The position numbers and the translations under genes are program-made. A DNA stretch of 56,930 bases from Candidatus Pacearchaeota archaeon (GTDB taxonomy: Archaea; Nanobdellota; Nanobdellia; Pacearchaeales; GW2011-AR1). The stretch covers positions 1 to 56,930 of the forward strand of contig JAGVWZ010000022.1 in the NCBI GenBank assembly GCA_018304045.1, given 5' to 3'. The notes beneath the pieces are model-generated. The model had not been told where the DNA came from. It saw only the letters and a list, made by a program, of their open reading frames with translations, and searched no databases. Below are positions 3,603 to 43,206 of this stretch, piece by piece. Positions within the stretch are counted from its first letter, which is position 1, and every line of letters starts with the position of its first letter.

Positions 3603-6044
3603 ATGAAAACAAACATCAAATTAATAATATTGGTTTTTTTAATATTAATAGGTTCTATGAGTTTTGTTAATGCAGTAACAATATGTGCTACTGGGCAAAA
3701 TTCATCTGGAAGTTTTAATCCTAATAATGGAGAAGTATTTGATATTGGAAATAGTTTTAATGGAATTTATAATTTTGTAAAAAGTAAGGCTTCTATAGGA
3801 ACTTGCCCACTTTCTGGTGGGGGAAATGCAATGTTTTTAGCTTATGCTGAATGGTATACTGGACAGTGCTCAACTTCTTTATCAGTGAGTCAACTTGATC
3901 CAACTGTTACTAAAATTTGTAATTTAGCAGGATATAGAGATCCATATACTTGGAGCAGTTATTTTAATGCAGATGGTGGAAGATGTAATTACCATAGTCC
4001 TGATAATGATTGTTTATGGTATTGGAATGGAAATAGTTTTCAATATATGGATGGAGAACCTGAATATATAAAAAGATGGATTACTGCTTTGAAATGTATT
4101 AATCGTTTACCTCAATGTAATGATGGGAAAGATAATGATGGGGATGGAAAAGTTGATTATCCTGCTGATTTAGATTGTACTAGTAAAAATGATGACAATG
4201 AAGGAGTTCATTGTGTAGTATGTGCTTCAAATGCTGATTGCAATGATAATAATAACAGGACAGAAGATATTTGTATAAATCCGGGAACAGCTCAAAGTAC
4301 TTGTCAGCATAATTATGTTAGATGCGCAAGCAATACTGATTGTGGTACAGATGGATTTACAGGAAATTTGTTTTGTCAGGGAAATGGGATTTTTCAAAAT
4401 TATAATTCTTTTATTTGCAGTAATCCTGGAACAAACTCAAGTTCTTGTTCAAATATTGTTACTCCTATGTTAAAATCAAGTTGTTCACAAGGACAAATTT
4501 GCAGTAATGCTCAATGCATTACAACACAATGTTCAAATGGAATTGATGATGATATTGATGGTTTTATTGATAGTCAAGACCCTGGTTGTTGGAATAATAT
4601 TAATGATGCTAATACTTACAATCCTTTATTAAATAATGAGTCAAGTGCTGGAATTACTTGTTTTACTAATGCTCAATGTGGAAGAGATGATTATGTTGAA
4701 AATAAATATTGTCAAAATGGAAGTGTATATCAAGATTACAAATCATTTACTTGTTTAAATCCAGGACTTGGTGGAAGCTCATGTTCTTCAATAACTTCAC
4801 CAAGATTAGTACAGGGATGTACAAAAGGATGTTCTAGTGGAACATGCCTTCAATTTACTTGCTATTCAAATTCAGATTGTAATGATAATGATGTTTATAC
4901 TGTTGATGAATGTAATAATCCTGGAACATCTCAAAGTTATTGTAATAATACTAGAGTAAATTGTGTTAATGATAATGATTGTGGATTTACTGGATTTTTT
5001 GGAACTGAATTCTGTTCTAGTAATGATGTTTTTAAGAATTTTAAAACTTCTAGATGTGTAAATCCTGGAACAAAACAAAGCAATTGTCAAGTCACTACTG
5101 CTCCAACATTTTTAATTGATTGTGGAGATAGTTCTTGTGGTAGTTTTGGAACTAATTATTGTAAAACAGATGGAAATGTTTATCATCAAAAAACTTGCAA
5201 TGATAAAGGATGTAGTAATGGTACTTGTTTTAGTACTTTTAGAGTTGATGAACAATTAGTTCAAACTTGTTCAAAGGGATGTTCTAATGGTCAATGCAGA
5301 CCTGAATGTGCTTCAAATGCAGATTGCAATGATAATAATTCAAATACACAGGATATATGTTTAAATCCTGGAACACAGCAAAGTGTTTGTCAGCATAATA
5401 TTGTAGGATGTAATGCTGATTCTGATTGTGGAACAAGCAGATTCTTAAATCAATTAACTTGTCAGAATGGAAATGTTTTTGATAGTTATATAATATTTAT
5501 GTGCATGAATCCAGGAACTGGAACTAGTTCTTGTATGAATCATACAGAAAGCAGGCAAGTAACAAATTGCACTAATGGCTGCCAAAATGGAATGTGTTTA
5601 GAAGGACAATGCACTGTTGATTCTGATTGTCATGCAGATTATGCTTCAAGTAAATATTGCATTAGTAATAGTGTTTATGAGGACTTTCATAATTATTCTT
5701 GTTCTACTAGTCATGTTTGCAGTGAAAATATAAGTAAAAGATTAGTTGAAACTTGTGATTATAGATGTAGGGATGGTGCTTGTAGAGATAAGACAAGTGG
5801 TAGTTTAATTGAAGAAGAAACTAGTGAAACAAGTCCTTTAATCTTAGTTGAAAATGATAGTGATAGAATGAAGATTATTGAAAGTGTTTATTCTGATGGA
5901 TTAAATGAAACTTCTTTGAAATTAGGAAAAGGTTATGCAGTTACATCTAATAATTATAATTACCTGTGGTTATGGTTAATTGGATTAATAATTTTATTAG
6001 TAATAATTATAATTGTTGTGATTGTAATATTAAATCAAAGATAA
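3603..6044 (+). CDS. secreted, C-terminally anchored cysteine-rich repeat surface protein
   Basis: Signal peptide MKTNIKLIILVFLILIGSMSFVNA. There are about 10 reiterated modules (C.SN.DCNDNN..T.D.C.NPGT.QS.C ... GC.NG.C) and one CNDGKDNDGDGKVDYP motif. A C-terminal TM segment reads LWLWLIGLIILLVIIIIVVIVIL. Confidence 0.6.
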   Translation: MKTNIKLIILVFLILIGSMSFVNAVTICATGQNSSGSFNPNNGEVFDIGNSFNGIYNFVKSKASIGTCPLSGGGNAMFLAYAEWYTGQCSTSLSVSQLDPTVTKICNLAGYRDPYTWSSYFNADGGRCNYHSPDNDCLWYWNGNSFQYMDGEPEYIKRWITALKCINRLPQCNDGKDNDGDGKVDYPADLDCTSKNDDNEGVHCVVCASNADCNDNNNRTEDICINPGTAQSTCQHNYVRCASNTDCGTDGFTGNLFCQGNGIFQNYNSFICSNPGTNSSSCSNIVTPMLKSSCSQGQICSNAQCITTQCSNGIDDDIDGFIDSQDPGCWNNINDANTYNPLLNNESSAGITCFTNAQCGRDDYVENKYCQNGSVYQDYKSFTCLNPGLGGSSCSSITSPRLVQGCTKGCSSGTCLQFTCYSNSDCNDNDVYTVDECNNPGTSQSYCNNTRVNCVNDNDCGFTGFFGTEFCSSNDVFKNFKTSRCVNPGTKQSNCQVTTAPTFLIDCGDSSCGSFGTNYCKTDGNVYHQKTCNDKGCSNGTCFSTFRVDEQLVQTCSKGCSNGQCRPECASNADCNDNNSNTQDICLNPGTQQSVCQHNIVGCNADSDCGTSRFLNQLTCQNGNVFDSYIIFMCMNPGTGTSSCMNHTESRQVTNCTNGCQNGMCLEGQCTVDSDCHADYASSKYCISNSVYEDFHNYSCSTSHVCSENISKRLVETCDYRCRDGACRDKTSGSLIEEETSETSPLILVENDSDRMKIIESVYSDGLNETSLKLGKGYAVTSNNYNYLWLWLIGLIILLVIIIIVVIVILNQR

Positions 6045-6055
6045 AAAATATCTTC

Positions 6056-6232
6056 TTAAACTTTTATTGCATTAACAGGACAAGCATCTGCGGCCTCTTT
6101 AACACAGGGAATTTTTGATTTATCCTGTGATTTTTTTATGCTGGCTTTTCCGTCTTTCATTTCAAAGACTTGTTCACATATTGCAGTGCAAGCTCCGCAT
6201 CCAATACATGTTTCTTTATTTACTGATACCAT
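6056..6232 (-). CDS. single-cluster 4Fe-4S ferredoxin (58 aa, below the ORF-track cutoff)
   Basis: Hand translation gives MVSVNKETCIGCGACTAICEQVF...CVKEAADACPVNAIKV, with a CxxCxxC...CP motif. GGAGGATA lies directly upstream of the ATG. Confidence 0.75.
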   Translation of the reverse strand: MVSVNKETCIGCGACTAICEQVFEMKDGKASIKKSQDKSKIPCVKEAADACPVNAIKV

Positions 6233-6411
6233 TATCCTCCTTTATTGCAATTTGATCCATTTATATTATTTTTGCAACTATTATTTTCTATATTTTTTAT
6301 TGTGTTTCCTGTAACAAGTCCCGTATATTTTGTTATGACTCCTGTAATAAAATAAAAACTTGTTATTAAGAGTATTATGATAATTATTGTGATTATTATT
6401 TCTTTTTTCAT
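6232..6411 (-). CDS. small membrane protein (59 aa) translationally coupled to the ferredoxin
   Basis: Hand translation gives MKKEIIITIIIIILLITSFYFITGV... Its TAA overlaps the ferredoxin ATG as TAATG. Confidence 0.4.
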   Translation of the reverse strand: MKKEIIITIIIIILLITSFYFITGVITKYTGLVTGNTIKNIENNSCKNNINGSNCNKGG

Positions 6412-6492
6412 GGATGTATGAGAAAATTTATGCTTTTAAATCTTGCTTTTTAGTATGCGAAAATTTAAATATAAAGATATTTTCTTTAATAC

Positions 6493-8832
6493 ATGGCAAA
6501 AAAGATGGTGTATGTTTCTGATAAGGATAATTATGTTAAATGGTTTTCTGAATTATCTAATAAGAATGTTTCTATTGCAGGTGGAAAAGGTGCAAGCCTT
6601 GCTGAGATGTATAATAATGGATTTCCTGTTCCTCCTGGATTTTGTATAACTGCTCAGAGCTTTGATTATTTTTTAACAAAAGCTGGAATAAAAGAAAAAA
6701 TAAATGAAATCATTATGAAAGTTCCTGATTTAGAGGATACAGAAGAACTGCAAAAAGCATCTAGGCAGATTAGGGATTTAATTGAAAGCCAGAAACTTCC
6801 TACTGAAATGGAGGAAGAGATTTTAGAATCTTATAAGATTTTGAGTTCTGAAAAAATTGATTCAATTGGTGTTAGTCAGGATGCATTAAATATTTTAAAA
6901 AATTCTCATGAACCTGTTTTTGTTTCTGTAAGAAGTTCAGCTACTACTGAAGATCTTGCAGATGCTAGTTTTGCAGGGCAGCAGGAAAGTTTTTTGAATG
7001 TTAAAGGTGATAGGCAGTTGATAATGAATGTAAAAAAATGTTTTTCATCACTATACACACCAAGGGCAATTTACTACAGACATAAAAAAGGTTTTGTAGA
7101 AGGGCAAGCTTTGCTTTCTGTTGTTGTTCAGAAAATGATTGATTCTGCTAAATCCGGAGTTATGTTTTCAAGAGATCCTGTTGGAAATCAGGATAATATT
7201 GTTATTGAAAGTGTTTTTGGACTTGGAGAAGGAATTGTTTCAGGACAAATTAAACCAGATCATTATGTTATTTCAAGAGATTTGGAAATTAAAAGTGTAA
7301 AAGTTTTAGATAAAAAAATAGCTTTTGTTAGAAATAGTTCTGGTGAAAATACTGTTGTTAAATTAAATCCTGAAAAAAGTAATAGTCAAGTTTTAACTGA
7401 AAAACAAATAAGAGAACTTGCTAATTATGGATTAAGATTAGAAGAGCATTATGGGAAGCCACAGGATATTGAGTTTGCAATTGATACTGAAAAAACTTAT
7501 ATTGTTCAATCAAGACCTATCACAACTTTAAAAGCAGGTGGTAAAAATGTTACTAGTAAAGAATTGAAAGGAAATGTTTTATTAACTGGACTTGGAAGCA
7601 GCCCGGGTATTGGTGTTGGTGTTGTTAAAATTATATATAGTATGAAGGATTTGAATAAAATCCAAAAGGGTGATGTTTTAGTAACTGAAATGACTAATCC
7701 AGATATGGTTGTTGCAATGGAGAGATCTGTTGCCATTGTTACTGATGAAGGTGGAATAACTGCTCATGCATCTATTGTTTCTAGGGAACTTGGAATTCCT
7801 TGTGTTGTTGGAACAGAGACTGCAACTAAAACCTTAAAAGACGGAATGATCATAACTGTTGATGGTACTAATGGAAAAGTCTATGAGGGAAAAGTTGCTG
7901 AAAGTGAGAAGAAAGAAATTAAAAAAGCACTTCCAACTGAAAGGATTAAACTAAAAGTTATTGTTGATATGCCTGAAAGTGCTGAAAGAGCAAAGGCATC
8001 TGAAATTGATTTTGTTGGTTTGACTAGAATTGAGGGAATAATTGCAAGTTCTGGAAAGCATCCGCTTTATTATGAAAAAAATGATTGTTTAAGTGATTAT
8101 GTTGATTTACTTTCTGATAAATTTGAGAAAATAATAAATCATTTTAATGGCATGTGGATAAGAAGTAGTGATATAAGAACTGATGAATTTGCAAGTTTAG
8201 AAGGGGCTCCTAAAAAAGAAATGAATCCAATGCTTGGACTTCATGGAATAAGATTTTCATTAAAACATCCTAAAATATTTGAAGCTGAATTAATGGCAAT
8301 AAGAAAAGTTGCATTAAAACATCCTAATAAAATTTTTGGAGTTATGTTTCCACAGGTTATTTCAGTTGATGAAGTAAGGCAGGCTAAGGAGCATTTTATT
8401 AAATTTAAAACAGATAATATGCAATTTGGAGTTATGATTGAAACTCCTGCTGCTTGTATGATTATTGAGGATATTTGTAAAGAAGGTGTTGATTTCATTT
8501 CTTTTGGAACAAATGATTTAACTCAGTTTACACTTGCAATTGACAGAGAAGAAGAAGATGTGCAGTTTTTGTATAATGAACTTAATCCTGCTGTTTATTC
8601 TCTTATAAAAAGAGTTATTGGAGTTTGTAGAAGATACAGGATTGAAACAAGCATTTGCGGACAGGCTGGAAGCAAACCTGAAATGGTTGAATTTTTATTT
8701 AGAAAAGGAATTAATTCAATTTCTGTAAATGCAGATGCTGCCTATGATGTATCGGTTTTAATAAATAAATTACAGGAAGATTGGAAGGCTAGCAAAGCTA
8801 TTGAAAATAATAAAGAGGAGTTATTATTATGA
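6493..8832 (+). CDS. ppsA: phosphoenolpyruvate synthase (pyruvate, water dikinase)
   Basis: 779 aa. It has GGKGASLAEM in the ATP-grasp region, the phosphohistidine motif TDEGGITAHASIVSRELGIPCVVG, and a C-terminal FISFGTNDLTQ motif. Confidence 0.9.
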   Translation: MAKKMVYVSDKDNYVKWFSELSNKNVSIAGGKGASLAEMYNNGFPVPPGFCITAQSFDYFLTKAGIKEKINEIIMKVPDLEDTEELQKASRQIRDLIESQKLPTEMEEEILESYKILSSEKIDSIGVSQDALNILKNSHEPVFVSVRSSATTEDLADASFAGQQESFLNVKGDRQLIMNVKKCFSSLYTPRAIYYRHKKGFVEGQALLSVVVQKMIDSAKSGVMFSRDPVGNQDNIVIESVFGLGEGIVSGQIKPDHYVISRDLEIKSVKVLDKKIAFVRNSSGENTVVKLNPEKSNSQVLTEKQIRELANYGLRLEEHYGKPQDIEFAIDTEKTYIVQSRPITTLKAGGKNVTSKELKGNVLLTGLGSSPGIGVGVVKIIYSMKDLNKIQKGDVLVTEMTNPDMVVAMERSVAIVTDEGGITAHASIVSRELGIPCVVGTETATKTLKDGMIITVDGTNGKVYEGKVAESEKKEIKKALPTERIKLKVIVDMPESAERAKASEIDFVGLTRIEGIIASSGKHPLYYEKNDCLSDYVDLLSDKFEKIINHFNGMWIRSSDIRTDEFASLEGAPKKEMNPMLGLHGIRFSLKHPKIFEAELMAIRKVALKHPNKIFGVMFPQVISVDEVRQAKEHFIKFKTDNMQFGVMIETPAACMIIEDICKEGVDFISFGTNDLTQFTLAIDREEEDVQFLYNELNPAVYSLIKRVIGVCRRYRIETSICGQAGSKPEMVEFLFRKGINSISVNADAAYDVSVLINKLQEDWKASKAIENNKEELLL

Positions 8833-38772: not shown

Positions 38773-39696
38773 ATGCCAGATAAAAGCGAAGTATTAAAAA
38801 TAGTTGATAGATTACATCAATCTCCTGATATTCCTTGCTTTGAAGAATTAATGAGAAGTCATAAATATGATTTAGTGTGGGCTGGAAGATGGTTTGATGG
38901 TGAAGTTAGAGATAGGACCTTGGAAATAAAAAGGAGAGCACTTTCTAAGTCTTTGAATGATTTATCTCAAAGAGCAGATATGCATACTGTGAAATTTAGA
39001 GAAAATTTTCCTCAACTTTATGATGCTGCAAGAAGATTATATGATACTGGAGTTGGATGTGATTTTTGGGGAAAAGCATTATTCTCAGCTGGAATTGAAT
39101 CACCAAAAAATTGCAGAGAGTGGAAACTTAAACTGCTCTTTCAAAGATTAAGAGAATTAGGCGATAAACCTGAAGATTTTGTTCATTCTCGTGTTTATGA
39201 AAAAGATTCTTATCTTACAATGTATGCTAGAAAGTGCTTTGAAACATTTGGTAAAGCAGTAATGCTTATAGGTGTAGATTTTTTATCTCTCCCAAAAGTA
39301 AGTGGACCAAAATTAAAACTTAAACATAGATTTTCCGATAATGATTTTAGATTGATACTCAATGATTCTAGTTTAAAAAGTGAAGAAAAAGTAAGAGCTT
39401 TATTTTATGGATTAGCATTGCAATATTATGATTTAGGACAATGGAGAAGTTATCAGGGAAAGACTTTTGAAGCAAGTAGTTTTTTTCATTTATGTGATAG
39501 GAGTCAGGGGTATAAAAACAGAGTTAGAATTAAACTTTTAAGACATCAAATGGATGAGGATAATAGAAAAGTAACTTTAGAATTAGATCAAAGAGTTCAA
39601 GCGAGATTCAATGGAGTTCAGTTTAGATTTCAAGGTACTGAATCTTATTCTGATTCTTTAAGGTTATATGAAGGAATAGAGGGTTTATTGAAGTAG
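38773..39696 (+). CDS. hypothetical protein
   Basis: An intact 307-aa ORF with no motif recognised. Confidence 0.3.
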   Translation: MPDKSEVLKIVDRLHQSPDIPCFEELMRSHKYDLVWAGRWFDGEVRDRTLEIKRRALSKSLNDLSQRADMHTVKFRENFPQLYDAARRLYDTGVGCDFWGKALFSAGIESPKNCREWKLKLLFQRLRELGDKPEDFVHSRVYEKDSYLTMYARKCFETFGKAVMLIGVDFLSLPKVSGPKLKLKHRFSDNDFRLILNDSSLKSEEKVRALFYGLALQYYDLGQWRSYQGKTFEASSFFHLCDRSQGYKNRVRIKLLRHQMDEDNRKVTLELDQRVQARFNGVQFRFQGTESYSDSLRLYEGIEGLLK

Positions 39697-39697
39697 A

Positions 39698-39844
39698 TTA
39701 TAATTTTTCCTTAACTTCTTTTTCTATTTGTTTTATAAAAGTTTCTTTTTTTATTTGTGTAACTTTGTTATCTTTTCTTACTGCAAGATTTCCGGATTGT
39801 TCTTCTTTATAATAAGAAGATTTATATTCTCCAATTAATATTAT
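39698..39844 (-). pseudogene. displaced 3-prime fragment of thrS (48 codons plus stop)
   Basis: Hand translation gives IILIGEYKSSYYKEEQSGNLAVRKDNKVTQIKKETFIKQIEKEVKEKL-stop. This aligns with the live ThrRS C-terminus IIVIGNKEEMEGTLAVRRNGKIVNMKKEEFIKKLTEEINNKN. A TAG stop lies immediately upstream. Confidence 0.75.
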
Positions 39845-39849
39845 CTAAT

Positions 39850-40980
39850 ATGGAAATTAATATTCTGCATTATCTGCCTGAAAATACAAAAATAAAATTA
39901 GATAAAATTCTAATTGATAAATTATTTTATGGAAGAAGCTTAACTAGGTGGAGCAGATTTTTAGGAATTTCTTTAAAAAATTTAAGCAGATATAAAAATG
40001 GTTCTAGAGCGGTTCCTCTTGATTTATTTAATAGATTAGTTGCTTTACTTAATTTAAATTTAATAGACTTTCAAAATAATATCCAACTAAAGATAAATTC
40101 CACGGGAAATTATATTAAACTAGGCCCCATTATAGAAATAGATGAAAAATGGGTTTATGTTTCTGAATTGATAAAAGGTGATGGACATATACCCTCCAAG
40201 TTTCATTATTTAGTTTTAGTTAATAATAATAAGGTCCTTATAGATTATGTAAAAGATTTTTTTATTTCATTAGGGCTTGATAAGAAACATTTGTTTATTT
40301 ATAAGAAAGATGATGTAAATTTTCTTATAATTCGTTCTTATTTATTAGCATACCTCTTTAATAAAATTTTAGAGGTTCCTGTCGGTAAAAAAAATGAGAT
40401 TAATATTAGTGATTTTGTAATGAAAAATAGAAGTTTTGGAATTGCAGCTATAAGGGGGGCTTTTGATGCAGAAGGAAGTGTAAATTTTATAGGTTCCAGA
40501 AGTATTACTATTTCTTCTCAGAGTTTAATTTGGATAAATAAACTTCAAAAAATATTAGATATTTTAAAAATAAAATCTAAGATCTATAAAGAAGAGAAAA
40601 GTAGGTCTAGGCCAATTTATAGATTAACTATTCATCATATTATTAATCTTAAAAGATTCTACAGAATTATTAAACCTCTACATAGTAAAAGGCAAGATAA
40701 ATTAAGAAAAATTATAACCGAGTTTAATAAAAATCCTTCAAGAATTTTTCATAAGAAAATATTGTTGTCAATCCAATCAGGTAATTACAGAAGAAGTGAT
40801 ATTGCTAGAGATATTAATAAAAGTTTAATTTTAGTTAGTAATAACATCGCTTATCTAAAGGAAAAGGGGTTCATAACTCCATTTGAAAAAAATTATACAA
40901 ATATTGGTTGTTATTTTAAATATAAAATGACTGATAGCGGTATTAAGTATCTAGAAGAAGGAGAATCTTATTATTTTTAA
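39850..40980 (+). CDS. free-standing double-motif LAGLIDADG homing-endonuclease-like protein with HTH domains
   Basis: SELIKGDGHI and AAIRGAFDAEGSV are the two LAGLIDADG-type motifs. There is an N-terminal XRE-like HTH and a C-terminal wHTH-like region. The line at 40201 is about 17% GC. Confidence 0.7.
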   Translation: MEINILHYLPENTKIKLDKILIDKLFYGRSLTRWSRFLGISLKNLSRYKNGSRAVPLDLFNRLVALLNLNLIDFQNNIQLKINSTGNYIKLGPIIEIDEKWVYVSELIKGDGHIPSKFHYLVLVNNNKVLIDYVKDFFISLGLDKKHLFIYKKDDVNFLIIRSYLLAYLFNKILEVPVGKKNEINISDFVMKNRSFGIAAIRGAFDAEGSVNFIGSRSITISSQSLIWINKLQKILDILKIKSKIYKEEKSRSRPIYRLTIHHIINLKRFYRIIKPLHSKRQDKLRKIITEFNKNPSRIFHKKILLSIQSGNYRRSDIARDINKSLILVSNNIAYLKEKGFITPFEKNYTNIGCYFKYKMTDSGIKYLEEGESYYF

Positions 40981-42707
40981 TTTTTATTATTTATCTCTTC
41001 AGTTAGTTTTTTAATAAACTCTTCTTTCTTCATATTGACTATCTTTCCATTTCTTCTCACAGCAAGAGTTCCTTCCATTTCCTCTTTATTACCGATAACT
41101 ATTATTACATTAATCTTTAGTATTTCTGCTGCTTTTATTTTGCCACCAATTGGTTCTGATTTTATGTCAGTGTCAACTCTGAAGCCAAGTTCATTTAATT
41201 CTTTTTCTAATTTTTCACAGGATTTATTGTTTTTATCTGTAAAATTAATAATTCTTATTTGTTTTGGAGCTAGCCATAAAGGAAGGTGGCCGTTTGTATG
41301 TTCAAGCAAGATTCCTGTGAATCTTTCTAAAGAACCTAGAACTGTTCTATGAAGCATTACAGGTCTTTTTTGTTGATTATTTTCATCATTGTAAGTAAGA
41401 TCAAATCTTTCTGGCATTGCAAAATCAAGTTGTATTGTTGCTGTTTGCCAAGTTCTTCCTAAGGAGTCTTTTATATGAAAGTCTATTTTAGGGCCATAAA
41501 ACGCACCATCTCCTTTATTTATTTTAAAATTCATTTTTTTCTTTTTTAATACATCTTCAAGAACTTTTTCAGCTTTATCCCATAATTTTTCTTCTCCAAT
41601 TCTTTTTTCAGGTCTTGTAGATAGTTCTACATGGTCAAATTCTATATTTAATTTTTTATATATTCTTGTATTTAAATCAATTATATTGATTATTTCTTGT
41701 TCTAATTGTTTTTCTGTGCAATAAATATGAGCATCATCTTGTGTGAATTGAATTACTCTAAATAATCCCCCTAAAACTCCGGATAATTCTTGTCTATGCA
41801 CAATTCCAAGTTCTGCTGCTCTTATTGGTAAGTCTTTGTAAGATTTTGGGTTTGTTTTATAGATTAGCATTCCTCCTGGACAGTTCATAGGTTTTACTGC
41901 AAAAGTTTTTTTTTCATATTCTGTTAAAAATATGTTTTCTTTGTATTTTTCCCAATGTCCTGATATTTGCCATAATCTTTTGTCAAGTATTTGTGGTGTT
42001 AATATTTCTTCATAGTCTGCTTTTCTATGTTCTTCTCTCCAAAATTCAATTAACTTGTTTCTTATTATAAGTCCATTATTATGCCAGAAAACCATTCCAG
42101 GTGCTACTTCATTAAAGGAAAATAAGTCCATTTGTTTTCCTATAATTCTATGGTCATTTTCTTTTAATTCTCTTGTATCTAATTTTGATTTTGATATTTC
42201 TCTTAGTAGTTGTTTATAGTCTATTACTTCGTCTTTTGATATTAATGATTTTTTAGATGCGTCTTCTTTTGAATTTACATTTTCTCCAATTGATCTTGAT
42301 AATTCTGACAAAGGATGTCCTTTGCATTTTAATTCAAACTCTTTATAATAACCAAATGGAGCTCGTGTAACTTTTATGGTTTTATCTTTAGAAAGTTCTT
42401 TTTCAGCTTGCTCTAATGTTTTTAATGCAAAGTCTGGTTTACTTAGGCTGGGTGAGAGATGGGCATAGGGATAAAGAACAATATGAGTTGCATTAACTTG
42501 AGAAGCAAGAGAGATTATATTTTCAACATATTCTTTAATAATATTTGTATTTTGTTCATCTTGTTTTTCAACAGCTGTTAATATTACTAACGGGTCTTTA
42601 ACTGTTATTTCTTTTTTTCTTTCTTCTGATAGTTCTTCTGGTTGATTTAATGCCTTTTTCAGAGGTTTAAATTTTATGTAATCACAATGCAAAGATAGGA
42701 TTTTCAT
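40977..42707 (-). CDS. thrS: threonine--tRNA ligase, archaeal type with an N-terminal DTD-like editing domain
   Basis: 576 aa. The N-terminus MKILSLHCDYIKFKP is the archaeal editing domain. Class II core motifs (FRVIQFTQDDAHIY, GAFYGPKIDF, HRTVLGSLERF) and an anticodon-binding C-terminus are present. Confidence 0.9.
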   Translation of the reverse strand: MKILSLHCDYIKFKPLKKALNQPEELSEERKKEITVKDPLVILTAVEKQDEQNTNIIKEYVENIISLASQVNATHIVLYPYAHLSPSLSKPDFALKTLEQAEKELSKDKTIKVTRAPFGYYKEFELKCKGHPLSELSRSIGENVNSKEDASKKSLISKDEVIDYKQLLREISKSKLDTRELKENDHRIIGKQMDLFSFNEVAPGMVFWHNNGLIIRNKLIEFWREEHRKADYEEILTPQILDKRLWQISGHWEKYKENIFLTEYEKKTFAVKPMNCPGGMLIYKTNPKSYKDLPIRAAELGIVHRQELSGVLGGLFRVIQFTQDDAHIYCTEKQLEQEIINIIDLNTRIYKKLNIEFDHVELSTRPEKRIGEEKLWDKAEKVLEDVLKKKKMNFKINKGDGAFYGPKIDFHIKDSLGRTWQTATIQLDFAMPERFDLTYNDENNQQKRPVMLHRTVLGSLERFTGILLEHTNGHLPLWLAPKQIRIINFTDKNNKSCEKLEKELNELGFRVDTDIKSEPIGGKIKAAEILKINVIIVIGNKEEMEGTLAVRRNGKIVNMKKEEFIKKLTEEINNKN

Positions 42708-42801: not shown

Positions 42802-43206
42802 ATGGAAAAGAGAGATAAAAAACAAATAAATAAATATAATTTTAATATGTTTGTTTTATCTGTTTTATTTGGGTTGTTTATGGTTTTTATCATACTTCTT
42901 TTATTAAAGTATGATGATTTTATTAAAATAAGAATTCTTAGATTTATTGTTTATAGCTTAACTTTGCTGATTCCTACTGTTATTTTTTCTATTTTACAAG
43001 GTTTATTTAGTTTTACTGAATTAACTTTATCTGAATCTTCTTATTATGTTATTGCTTTTATTTTTTATTCTTGTTTTTTTTATATTTTTATATTAAGATG
43101 TCAAAAAAAAGATTCTTTTTGGTGTCTTGTTAAACTTGGAATAGGTATTTTATTATTTTTAATTGCGTCTGTTTCATTATTGGCTATTGCTGGAGGAGGA
43201 TTATGA
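42802..43206 (+). CDS. polytopic small membrane protein
   Basis: Four hydrophobic segments. It overlaps the next gene by 4 nt. Confidence 0.4.
   Translation: MEKRDKKQINKYNFNMFVLSVLFGLFMVFIILLLLKYDDFIKIRILRFIVYSLTLLIPTVIFSILQGLFSFTELTLSESSYYVIAFIFYSCFFYIFILRCQKKDSFWCLVKLGIGILLFLIASVSLLAIAGGGL

Follow-up and report, generated by a model that had tools for sequence, protein, structure and literature searches.

In a 56,930-nucleotide (nt) stretch of DNA from a Candidatus Pacearchaeota archaeon (GenBank assembly GCA_018304045.1, contig JAGVWZ010000022.1, positions 1 to 56,930; hereafter the window), the threonyl-tRNA synthetase gene thrS ends in what is most probably a mobile element of ~1.3 kb (39809 to ~41132). 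According to this interpretation, to which a probability of roughly 85% is assigned, the element is formed by a promoter, a LAGLIDADG homing endonuclease gene (HEG) and, on the opposite strand, a replacement of the last ~51 codons of thrS, and it has spread by homing. The original end of thrS lies as a dead copy on the other side of the HEG. The features of the locus are the following.

39698-39808, minus strand: host-derived dead 3' end of thrS, 36 codons KEEQSGNLAVRKDNKVTQIKKETFIKQIEKEVKEKL (KEEQSG...KEKL) plus TAA (identity to L099, P0060 and P0066; hidden Markov model, HMM)
39809-39849, plus strand: element-borne block 5' of the endonuclease ATG (nucleotide alignment of 10 loci)
39850-40980, plus strand: free-standing double-motif LAGLIDADG endonuclease gene (HEG), 376 amino acids (aa) (Pfam, AlphaFold2, Foldseek)
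40977-41132, minus strand: foreign, element-borne live 3' end of thrS, ~codons 526-576 plus stop (drop in identity to relatives)
41079-41117, minus strand: live-allele counterpart of the putative target or insertion region, codons KINVIIVIGNKEE (comparison of 26 HEG-free and 12 HEG-bearing alleles)
41133-42707, minus strand: native thrS body with the archaeal editing domain, the class II core and most of the anticodon-binding domain (Pfam)

Layout of the locus

The minus strand at 39698-39844 reads IILIGEYKSSYYKEEQSGNLAVRKDNKVTQIKKETFIKQIEKEVKEKL followed by a stop. An in-frame TAG precedes it (39845-39847) and its terminal TAA (39698-39700) is 1 nt away from the TAG stop (39694-39696) of a convergent open reading frame (ORF) of 307 aa. 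An earlier interpretation made from the letters of the DNA (the sequence-only reading) had proposed a dead thrS end at these positions, and its coordinates and translation were exact. It had also placed a LAGLIDADG gene between the dead and live ends with overlapping stops, in agreement with the Pfam result (LAGLIDADG_3, 1e-15, 58 bits versus a cut-off of 22.5) and with the 4-nt tail-to-tail overlap of the endonuclease and thrS stops. The live gene, at 40980-42707 on the minus strand, contains the Pfam domains tRNA-Thr_ED, tRNA-synt_2b and HGTP_anticodon and encodes an archaeal-type threonyl-tRNA synthetase (ThrRS).

Other details had to be amended. The host remnant covers only 39698-39808, where it has no start codon and is severed from its gene, while the 12 residues at the beginning of the fragment (IILIGEYKSSYY, 39809-39844) belong to the putative promoter block discussed below. 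The live end is foreign, as had been thought, but the foreign stretch starts ~9 codons further upstream than the proposed position 41105, at ~41132. The GC content of the endonuclease gene, estimated at ~17% on that occasion, was computed to be 24.5%, versus 29.4% for the window, with individual 60-nt stretches down to 12%.

Origin of the dead copy and of the live tail

The source of the window is a DPANN archaeon, with relatives of the Woesearchaeota/Pacearchaeota/Nanoarchaeota type. The window ThrRS was compared with 119 relatives from a large protein collection. The dead copy aligns with residues 535-575 of the live ThrRS at 45% identity (BLASTP with composition adjustment, E=2e-9) and is detected by an HMM of ThrRS C-termini with E=5e-8. 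In the closest HEG-free relatives, with ThrRS bodies 76-85% identical to that of the window at the aa level, the tails agree with the dead copy at 32 of 36 residues (P0060 and P0066) or 31 of 36 (P0077), and with the live tail of the window at only 15-18 of 36. The same was observed at the nucleotide level, since 99 of the 111 nt of the dead copy (89%) are identical to the live 3' end of L099, whereas identity to L099 is 63.5% for the last 159 nt of the live window gene; the thrS bodies are 76% identical.

Since the relatives end with the dead-copy sequence and not with the live tail, the dead copy is the ancestral host end of thrS and the live tail was imported. The proposal of the sequence-only reading that the element supplies a diverged replacement end was thereby supported, as was its expectation that endonuclease-free alleles ending with the dead-copy sequence exist. 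The endonuclease gene is absent downstream of thrS in L099 (P0060, 295-kb contig) and in L100/L101 (P0057), and no endonuclease-free relative carrying both tail copies was found. L099 retains downstream synteny with the window (GNAT gene 46% identical, 168-aa ORF 78%).

A chance similarity, a concern already raised in the sequence-only reading, or an annotation artefact was also considered. The genome has 29% GC and peptides rich in K, E and I align easily, so the dead copy might be mere AT-rich, lysine-rich sequence. Given the composition-adjusted E value, the match of 99/111 nt to the true thrS end of a relative and the recurrence of dead copies in many independent loci, this explanation is extremely improbable.

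Identity of the window ThrRS to its 11 closest relatives is ~0.8-0.9 along the protein and falls to 0.65, 0.52 and 0.46 in the final segments, the last value corresponding to the last 36 residues. The first diverging residue is A526 (KIK/AAEILKINV in the window versus KIK/QAEMEKIPY in the relatives). The foreign stretch probably begins at about codon 526 (~41132), with the upstream junction tentatively placed between about 41130 and 41155. When ThrRS is used as a phylogenetic marker, it should be considered that xenologous sequence can make up the last ~55 codons of the gene in these genomes.

The endonuclease protein

The encoded protein comprises an N-terminal helix-turn-helix (HTH) domain (~1-75), a LAGLIDADG core (~95-290) and a C-terminal winged helix (~300-372). 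The N-terminal domain (~75 residues) is helical and HTH-like, with a weak match to Pfam HTH_3, and the C-terminal ~70 residues resemble the winged-helix proteins AspA and MarR/ZitR. Residues G110-D111 (ELIKGD111G) and F205-D206-A207-E208-G209 (FDAE208G) are invariant across 28 homologues; therefore, the catalytic acids are kept in both LAGLIDADG motifs.

The AlphaFold2 model obtained with the family alignment (predicted local distance difference test, pLDDT, 91; predicted template modelling score, pTM, 0.80) shows the pseudo-dimeric fold, with two alpha-beta-beta-alpha-beta-beta-alpha units. The best Foldseek matches of the predicted core are I-Tsp061I, PI-PfuI, the endonuclease domain of the TliVMA intein and I-DmoI, with E values of 1e-8 to 1e-6, TM scores of 0.65-0.74 normalised to the target and identities of 17-21%. 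From conservation, the enzyme is predicted to cleave both strands of element-free thrS in a site-specific manner. The combination of HTH, core and winged helix is a new LAGLIDADG architecture and, with a predictable natural target of ~20-35 bp, it is of interest for meganuclease engineering.

Association of the endonuclease family with thrS

Homologues of the endonuclease (n = 53) are 26-63% identical and mostly ~376 aa long. Locus contexts were obtained from an exact-protein look-up, species-representative genomes (11 loci) and metagenome contigs (40 loci), and a locus was counted when it covered at least ~100 nt beyond the endonuclease stop. A convergent thrS abuts the endonuclease stop in 33/33 metagenome loci and in all genome loci (~39 distinct DPANN loci), with an overlap between the two stops of 4-46 nt where both were mapped.

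The flanking genes differ entirely between HEG loci. The ThrRS bodies of these loci are merely 34-75% identical to that of the window and differ in domain type: L086 encodes a tRNA_SAD-type enzyme without the archaeal editing domain, and the ThrRS of L094, 34% identical to that of the window, has an unusual C-terminal extension. Since the same HEG family is found at clearly different thrS types (L086/L121, L094/L106 and L135), the element has crossed between ThrRS lineages. Its distribution is sporadic, and there are signs of its horizontal spread to a single conserved site. In species-representative genomes, the endonuclease gene is absent from all of the 80 best thrS matches, which show no synteny either and were used as HEG-free controls only. 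No homologue was found in viral contigs, hence there is no evidence for a viral vector.

Degenerate copies were also observed. In L092 (Aenigmatarchaeota metagenome-assembled genome, 4001-5138) the endonuclease gene is frameshifted near codon 140 and the TATA block is lost, and in L098 (1329-2240) the protein is truncated to 303 aa, without the winged-helix domain. Copies of this kind would be expected when a homing cycle enters its degeneration phase.

Two further observations were made at thrS loci. The ThrRS ORF of L091 (~4419-6620, minus strand) has its editing domain separated from the catalytic core by an insertion of ~160 aa, which is missing in other family members. At the P0058 locus (JGI 3300075153), the HEG-free thrS is followed by a convergent 122-aa ORF with a 4-nt stop overlap, the same geometry as for the HEG, and this ORF could be an endonuclease remnant.

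Transfer of the tail together with the endonuclease

Pairs of HEG-bearing loci have tails that are more similar than their ThrRS bodies, with 66% (tail) versus 42% (body) for L084-L086, 61% versus 38% for L086-L090, 71% versus 52% for L084-L090 and 63% versus 53% for L090-L091; pairwise values involving L135 were disregarded as alignment artefacts. In HEG-free control pairs with body identity below 55% (n = 1008), mean tail identity is ~30%, and tails of at least 60% identity occur in only 0.4%. The live tail tracks the endonuclease gene and not the ThrRS body. In the divergent clade, the tails have a common extension (...ISFK), which is antisense to the C-terminus of the endonuclease.

A recent transfer can be seen between L086 and L087, which show 1 difference in 1,405 nt (L086 4880-6284). 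This tract comprises the start of the dead copy, the promoter region, the endonuclease gene in full length and the final 57 codons of thrS. Outside it, divergence amounts to 5.1% in the thrS body and to 10.8% in the neighbouring HhH-GPD gene. Therefore, the near-identical tract within diverged flanks delimits the mobile unit, and its spread is far more recent than the divergence of the strains.

A second pair, L120 and L121, has an endonuclease gene and tail that are 98.6-100% identical, next to thrS bodies whose identity, starting 65 codons ahead of the stop, is only ~55-65%; in the other flank it is 90-95%. This corresponds either to a transfer into a very different thrS or to a chimeric assembly across the common element, and under either reading one element stands beside two different thrS bodies. 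Near-identical 1.4-kb elements common to different populations can cause chimeric metagenome contigs. Within the otherwise identical endonuclease gene of this pair there is a patch of 94% identity (L121 3079-3405; the drop in the body begins at 3809), which suggests recombination between endonuclease variants.

Dead tails at other loci and the left end of the element

Dead tails were searched for with the ThrRS-tail HMM. They were found directly 5' of the endonuclease ATG in the window and in L081, L084, L086/87, L089 and L091 (E 1e-8 to 1e-14), with weak matches in L090 and L092, and in 12/34 metagenome loci. They form a series of decay, from intact copies through copies 5'-truncated at varied points, frameshifted (L120) or stop-ridden (L119) to undetectable ones, as in the divergent clade L093, L095-097. 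Among the truncated copies, L084 retains YEVVIVIGDKEEK, L081 IIGDKEEK and L091 only KTIAVRK... The ~39 loci, from fresh to decayed, provide a series for the study of the homing cycle, co-conversion tract length and target immunity in uncultured DPANN.

Two loci contain more than one remnant. In L091 (2740-3300; = L126), a second, weaker ThrRS-tail remnant (...SIEKFIKQIQEEIKERK and a stop) lies further downstream than the first dead copy, beyond a zinc-ribbon/AbrB-like gene of 110 aa, and L119 also has a second, likewise stop-ridden remnant. Such double remnants may stem from successive replacements of the thrS end.

Between the ATG and the dead tail, a block of ~45 nt is kept in all elements, and beyond it the sequence diverges (nucleotide alignment of 10 loci). 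On the plus strand it reads TTTATAwTCTCC...ATG (GGAGAwTATAAA on the thrS strand) with conserved spacing to the ATG; in the window, TTTATA is at 39821-39826, centred ~26 nt before the ATG. This distance is the archaeal promoter geometry for leaderless mRNA. The block is thus suggestive of an archaeal TATA promoter from which a leaderless endonuclease mRNA would be made. On the thrS strand it reads IIVxG[D/E]YK, resembling the IIVIGD codons of thrS. The promoter may have been built from captured IIVIGD target codons, and, speculatively, the block would descend from an ancestral half-site of the target. Another candidate explanation for the window version, an insertion of YKSSYY into the dead copy after its inactivation, was rejected, since all elements share the block and the TATA box lies within it.

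Content and ends of the element

According to the ORF list and Pfam, the element has a single gene and no integrase or transposase, and no terminal inverted repeats, target-site duplication or att-like direct repeats were found at its ends, apart from AT-rich chance matches. There is no intron RNA in the window (Rfam) and no Hint/intein match in Pfam, and the HEG is on the strand opposite to thrS, so the element falls outside the intein- or intron-encoded class.

Integrative elements can carry replacement 3' ends for their target genes, as prophage e14 does for icd of E. coli. It was therefore considered whether the thrS end had been replaced by another process, such as integrase-type site-specific integration or illegitimate recombination, with the LAGLIDADG gene as a passenger. 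In favour of this view, the position of the dead-copy junction is not the same in all loci, a pattern expected from imprecise recombination. However, the recombinase gene and the att direct repeats of e14/icd-type elements are missing here, as are terminal inverted repeats, and among ~39 loci the LAGLIDADG gene alone constantly accompanies the replaced tail, with which it physically overlaps. Such a process is very unlikely to be the origin of the arrangement.

Candidate target and possible immunity

At the candidate target, HEG-free alleles have ATTCCTTATATAATTGTTATTGGAGATAAAGAAGAA (IPYIIVIGDKEE) in common. The live alleles of HEG-bearing loci differ there; that of the window has INVIIVIGNKEE and the codons ATC GGT AAT ... 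GAG GAA. The Tyr of the motif PY is present in 25/28 HEG-free alleles versus 0/12 HEG-bearing live alleles (Fisher p=8e-8), and the dead copies start within or just past the candidate motif. From this comparison we infer that the IPYIIVIGDKEE region is the putative target of the endonuclease and, as the sequence-only reading had also supposed, that an invaded allele would be immune to re-cleavage. Loss of this Tyr was rejected as a predictor of HEG presence, and is only a one-directional marker, because P0099 and P0058 are Tyr-less and HEG-free; these could be naturally resistant or post-loss alleles.

Homing as a probable explanation

The proposed mechanism would start with cleavage of HEG-free thrS in or near the conserved codons IPYIIVIGDKEE, in the region of the anticodon-binding domain. 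The double-strand break would be repaired from an element-bearing allele, with the thrS body as one homology arm and the native or dead tail plus downstream DNA as the other. Repair would copy in the foreign tail, the endonuclease gene and its promoter, and thrS would remain a complete, chimeric gene in which a foreign tail is joined to the native body. Behind the element, the original tail would be stranded as a promoterless and start-less remnant, and would then decay. Since the foreign tail differs at the target, the invaded allele would presumably be no longer cut. Such a mechanism would account for thrS staying functional with the dead tail always on the promoter side, for the interlocking of tail and HEG through overlapping stops, and for co-conversion tracts that end 51-65 codons before the stop.

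With odds slightly better than even, an actively homing, thrS-dedicated LAGLIDADG element circulates among distant DPANN and repeatedly swaps the C-terminal ~50-65 ThrRS residues between synthetases that are ~40% identical, including tRNA-Thr_ED and tRNA_SAD types. If this is true, a selfish endonuclease would continually drive the mosaic evolution of a translation gene that is essential to cellular archaea.

Several points weigh against the homing interpretation. The model does not explain how the right-hand junction is formed in transfers between species without downstream homology. The assembly of L120 may be chimeric. For the population of the window, no junction bypassing the element was detected in the only material, Logan contigs, which were fragmentary and mixed with related strains. 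The HEG-free P0099 and P0058 lack the PY Tyr, and both nuclease activity and target are deduced from conservation. In addition, almost every family member is intact, the length being constant (~376 aa), and the identities of HEGs and ThrRS bodies correlate (Spearman 0.71); intactness and correlation would also fit a long vertical co-inheritance with some host-level function.

These last two points, together with the two extra HTH-type domains, favour a domesticated, WhiA-like LAGLIDADG/HTH host DNA-binding factor, e.g., a regulator of thrS, which would be inherited vertically, the dead tail being the relic of one ancient insertion. WhiA is also among the fold matches, and one source labels a family member as "WhiA". 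Nevertheless, the catalytic acids are invariant, unlike in WhiA, the Pfam LAGLIDADG_WhiA score is 16.4, under the cut-off of 23.2, and the gene is missing from most close relatives. An ancient relic would not be expected to match the live end of a relative at 89% of its nucleotides, nor a vertically inherited gene to show near-identical element tracts where the flanks of the strains differ by 5-11%. Tails common to unrelated ThrRS bodies and the existence of frameshifted and truncated copies also argue against domestication, which is considered unlikely.

Comparison with known systems

Replacement of a gene end by an endonuclease-bearing insertion was described in the sequence-only reading as known from organelles and phages, and for organelles the literature agrees. 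In fungal mitochondria, mobile ORFs (mORFs) with a foreign C-terminus have been described in atp6 of Allomyces macrogynus, in atp6, atp9, cox2 and nad3 of Glomus sp., in atp9 of Rhizopus and in cox2 of Mortierella (PMC3630166 and references therein). The order is the same as in thrS of the window and of ~12 other loci, namely host gene body, foreign C-terminus, endonuclease ORF (mostly LAGLIDADG in mORFs) and native C*-terminus. In Glomus, the native C* is 91-98% identical to relatives at the nt level, versus 64-81% for the inserted C-terminus (PMC3630166), and the corresponding values for thrS are 89% versus 63.5%. Neither system needs an intron or intein to preserve the integrity of the essential gene.

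Unlike the mORFs, the thrS element is found in a DPANN archaeal chromosome and its target is a nuclear-type informational gene, an aminoacyl-tRNA synthetase. Its HEG is convergent, overlaps the stop of the host gene and has its own TATA block, whereas the ORF of mORFs has the same orientation as the host gene and is often in phase and co-transcribed with it. The thrS enzyme also has the added N-terminal HTH and C-terminal winged helix, and one family is tied to one target over ~39 loci. In its mode of action the thrS element corresponds to a mORF, of which it is a distinct variant. With these data, an invasion of the "bring your own gene end" type, without intron or intein, is seen in chromosomes of cellular archaea, with an aminoacyl-tRNA synthetase gene as the target. 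In full-text literature searches, no element of this type was found to have been described for archaea or for the gene of any aminoacyl-tRNA synthetase, in line with what the sequence-only reading had stated for archaeal synthetases, and ThrRS inteins were found only in yeasts.

With the endonucleases of archaeal rRNA introns and inteins (I-DmoI, I-Tsp061I, PI-PfuI, TliVMA), the thrS enzyme shares the monomeric two-domain LAGLIDADG core, both catalytic acids and Pfam LAGLIDADG_3; in contrast to them, it is encoded outside an intron or intein, carries the accessory HTH and winged-helix domains and is only 17-21% identical. The free-standing endonucleases of phages and their "intronless homing" (T4 Seg, Mob, F-CphI; PMC2988022, PMC2790892, PMC6083498) resemble the thrS case in having an endonuclease gene beside a conserved essential gene, in spreading with co-conversion of the flanking gene and in an invaded allele thought to be immune through sequence differences. 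However, they are GIY-YIG, HNH or EndoVII-type enzymes encoded in intergenic positions, without a duplicated dead gene end. The bacterial transcription factor WhiA has a LAGLIDADG scaffold fused to an HTH, as found here, but it has lost the catalytic residues and is universal in its clade, while the thrS HEG is sporadic.

Neighbouring features

The 307-aa ORF (38773-39696, plus strand, 31% GC) lies between the dead thrS end and the GNAT gene. No match was found for it in Pfam or PHROGs, and it is missing from the otherwise syntenic L099 and L100; it could represent a further insertion at this position. An Rfam scan of window positions 1-56930 at gathering thresholds gave zero RNA families, tRNAs included, in the 57 kb. 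On the other side of thrS, a gene at 43203-45350 (plus strand) encodes a 715-aa protein with several tandem Cys-rich modules (...ETCDNIDNDCDGxIDE...SCGxGxC...) and a multi-pass membrane C-terminus. This region has ~40% GC locally versus 29% for the window, and the protein gives a weak match to Cu-binding_MopE.

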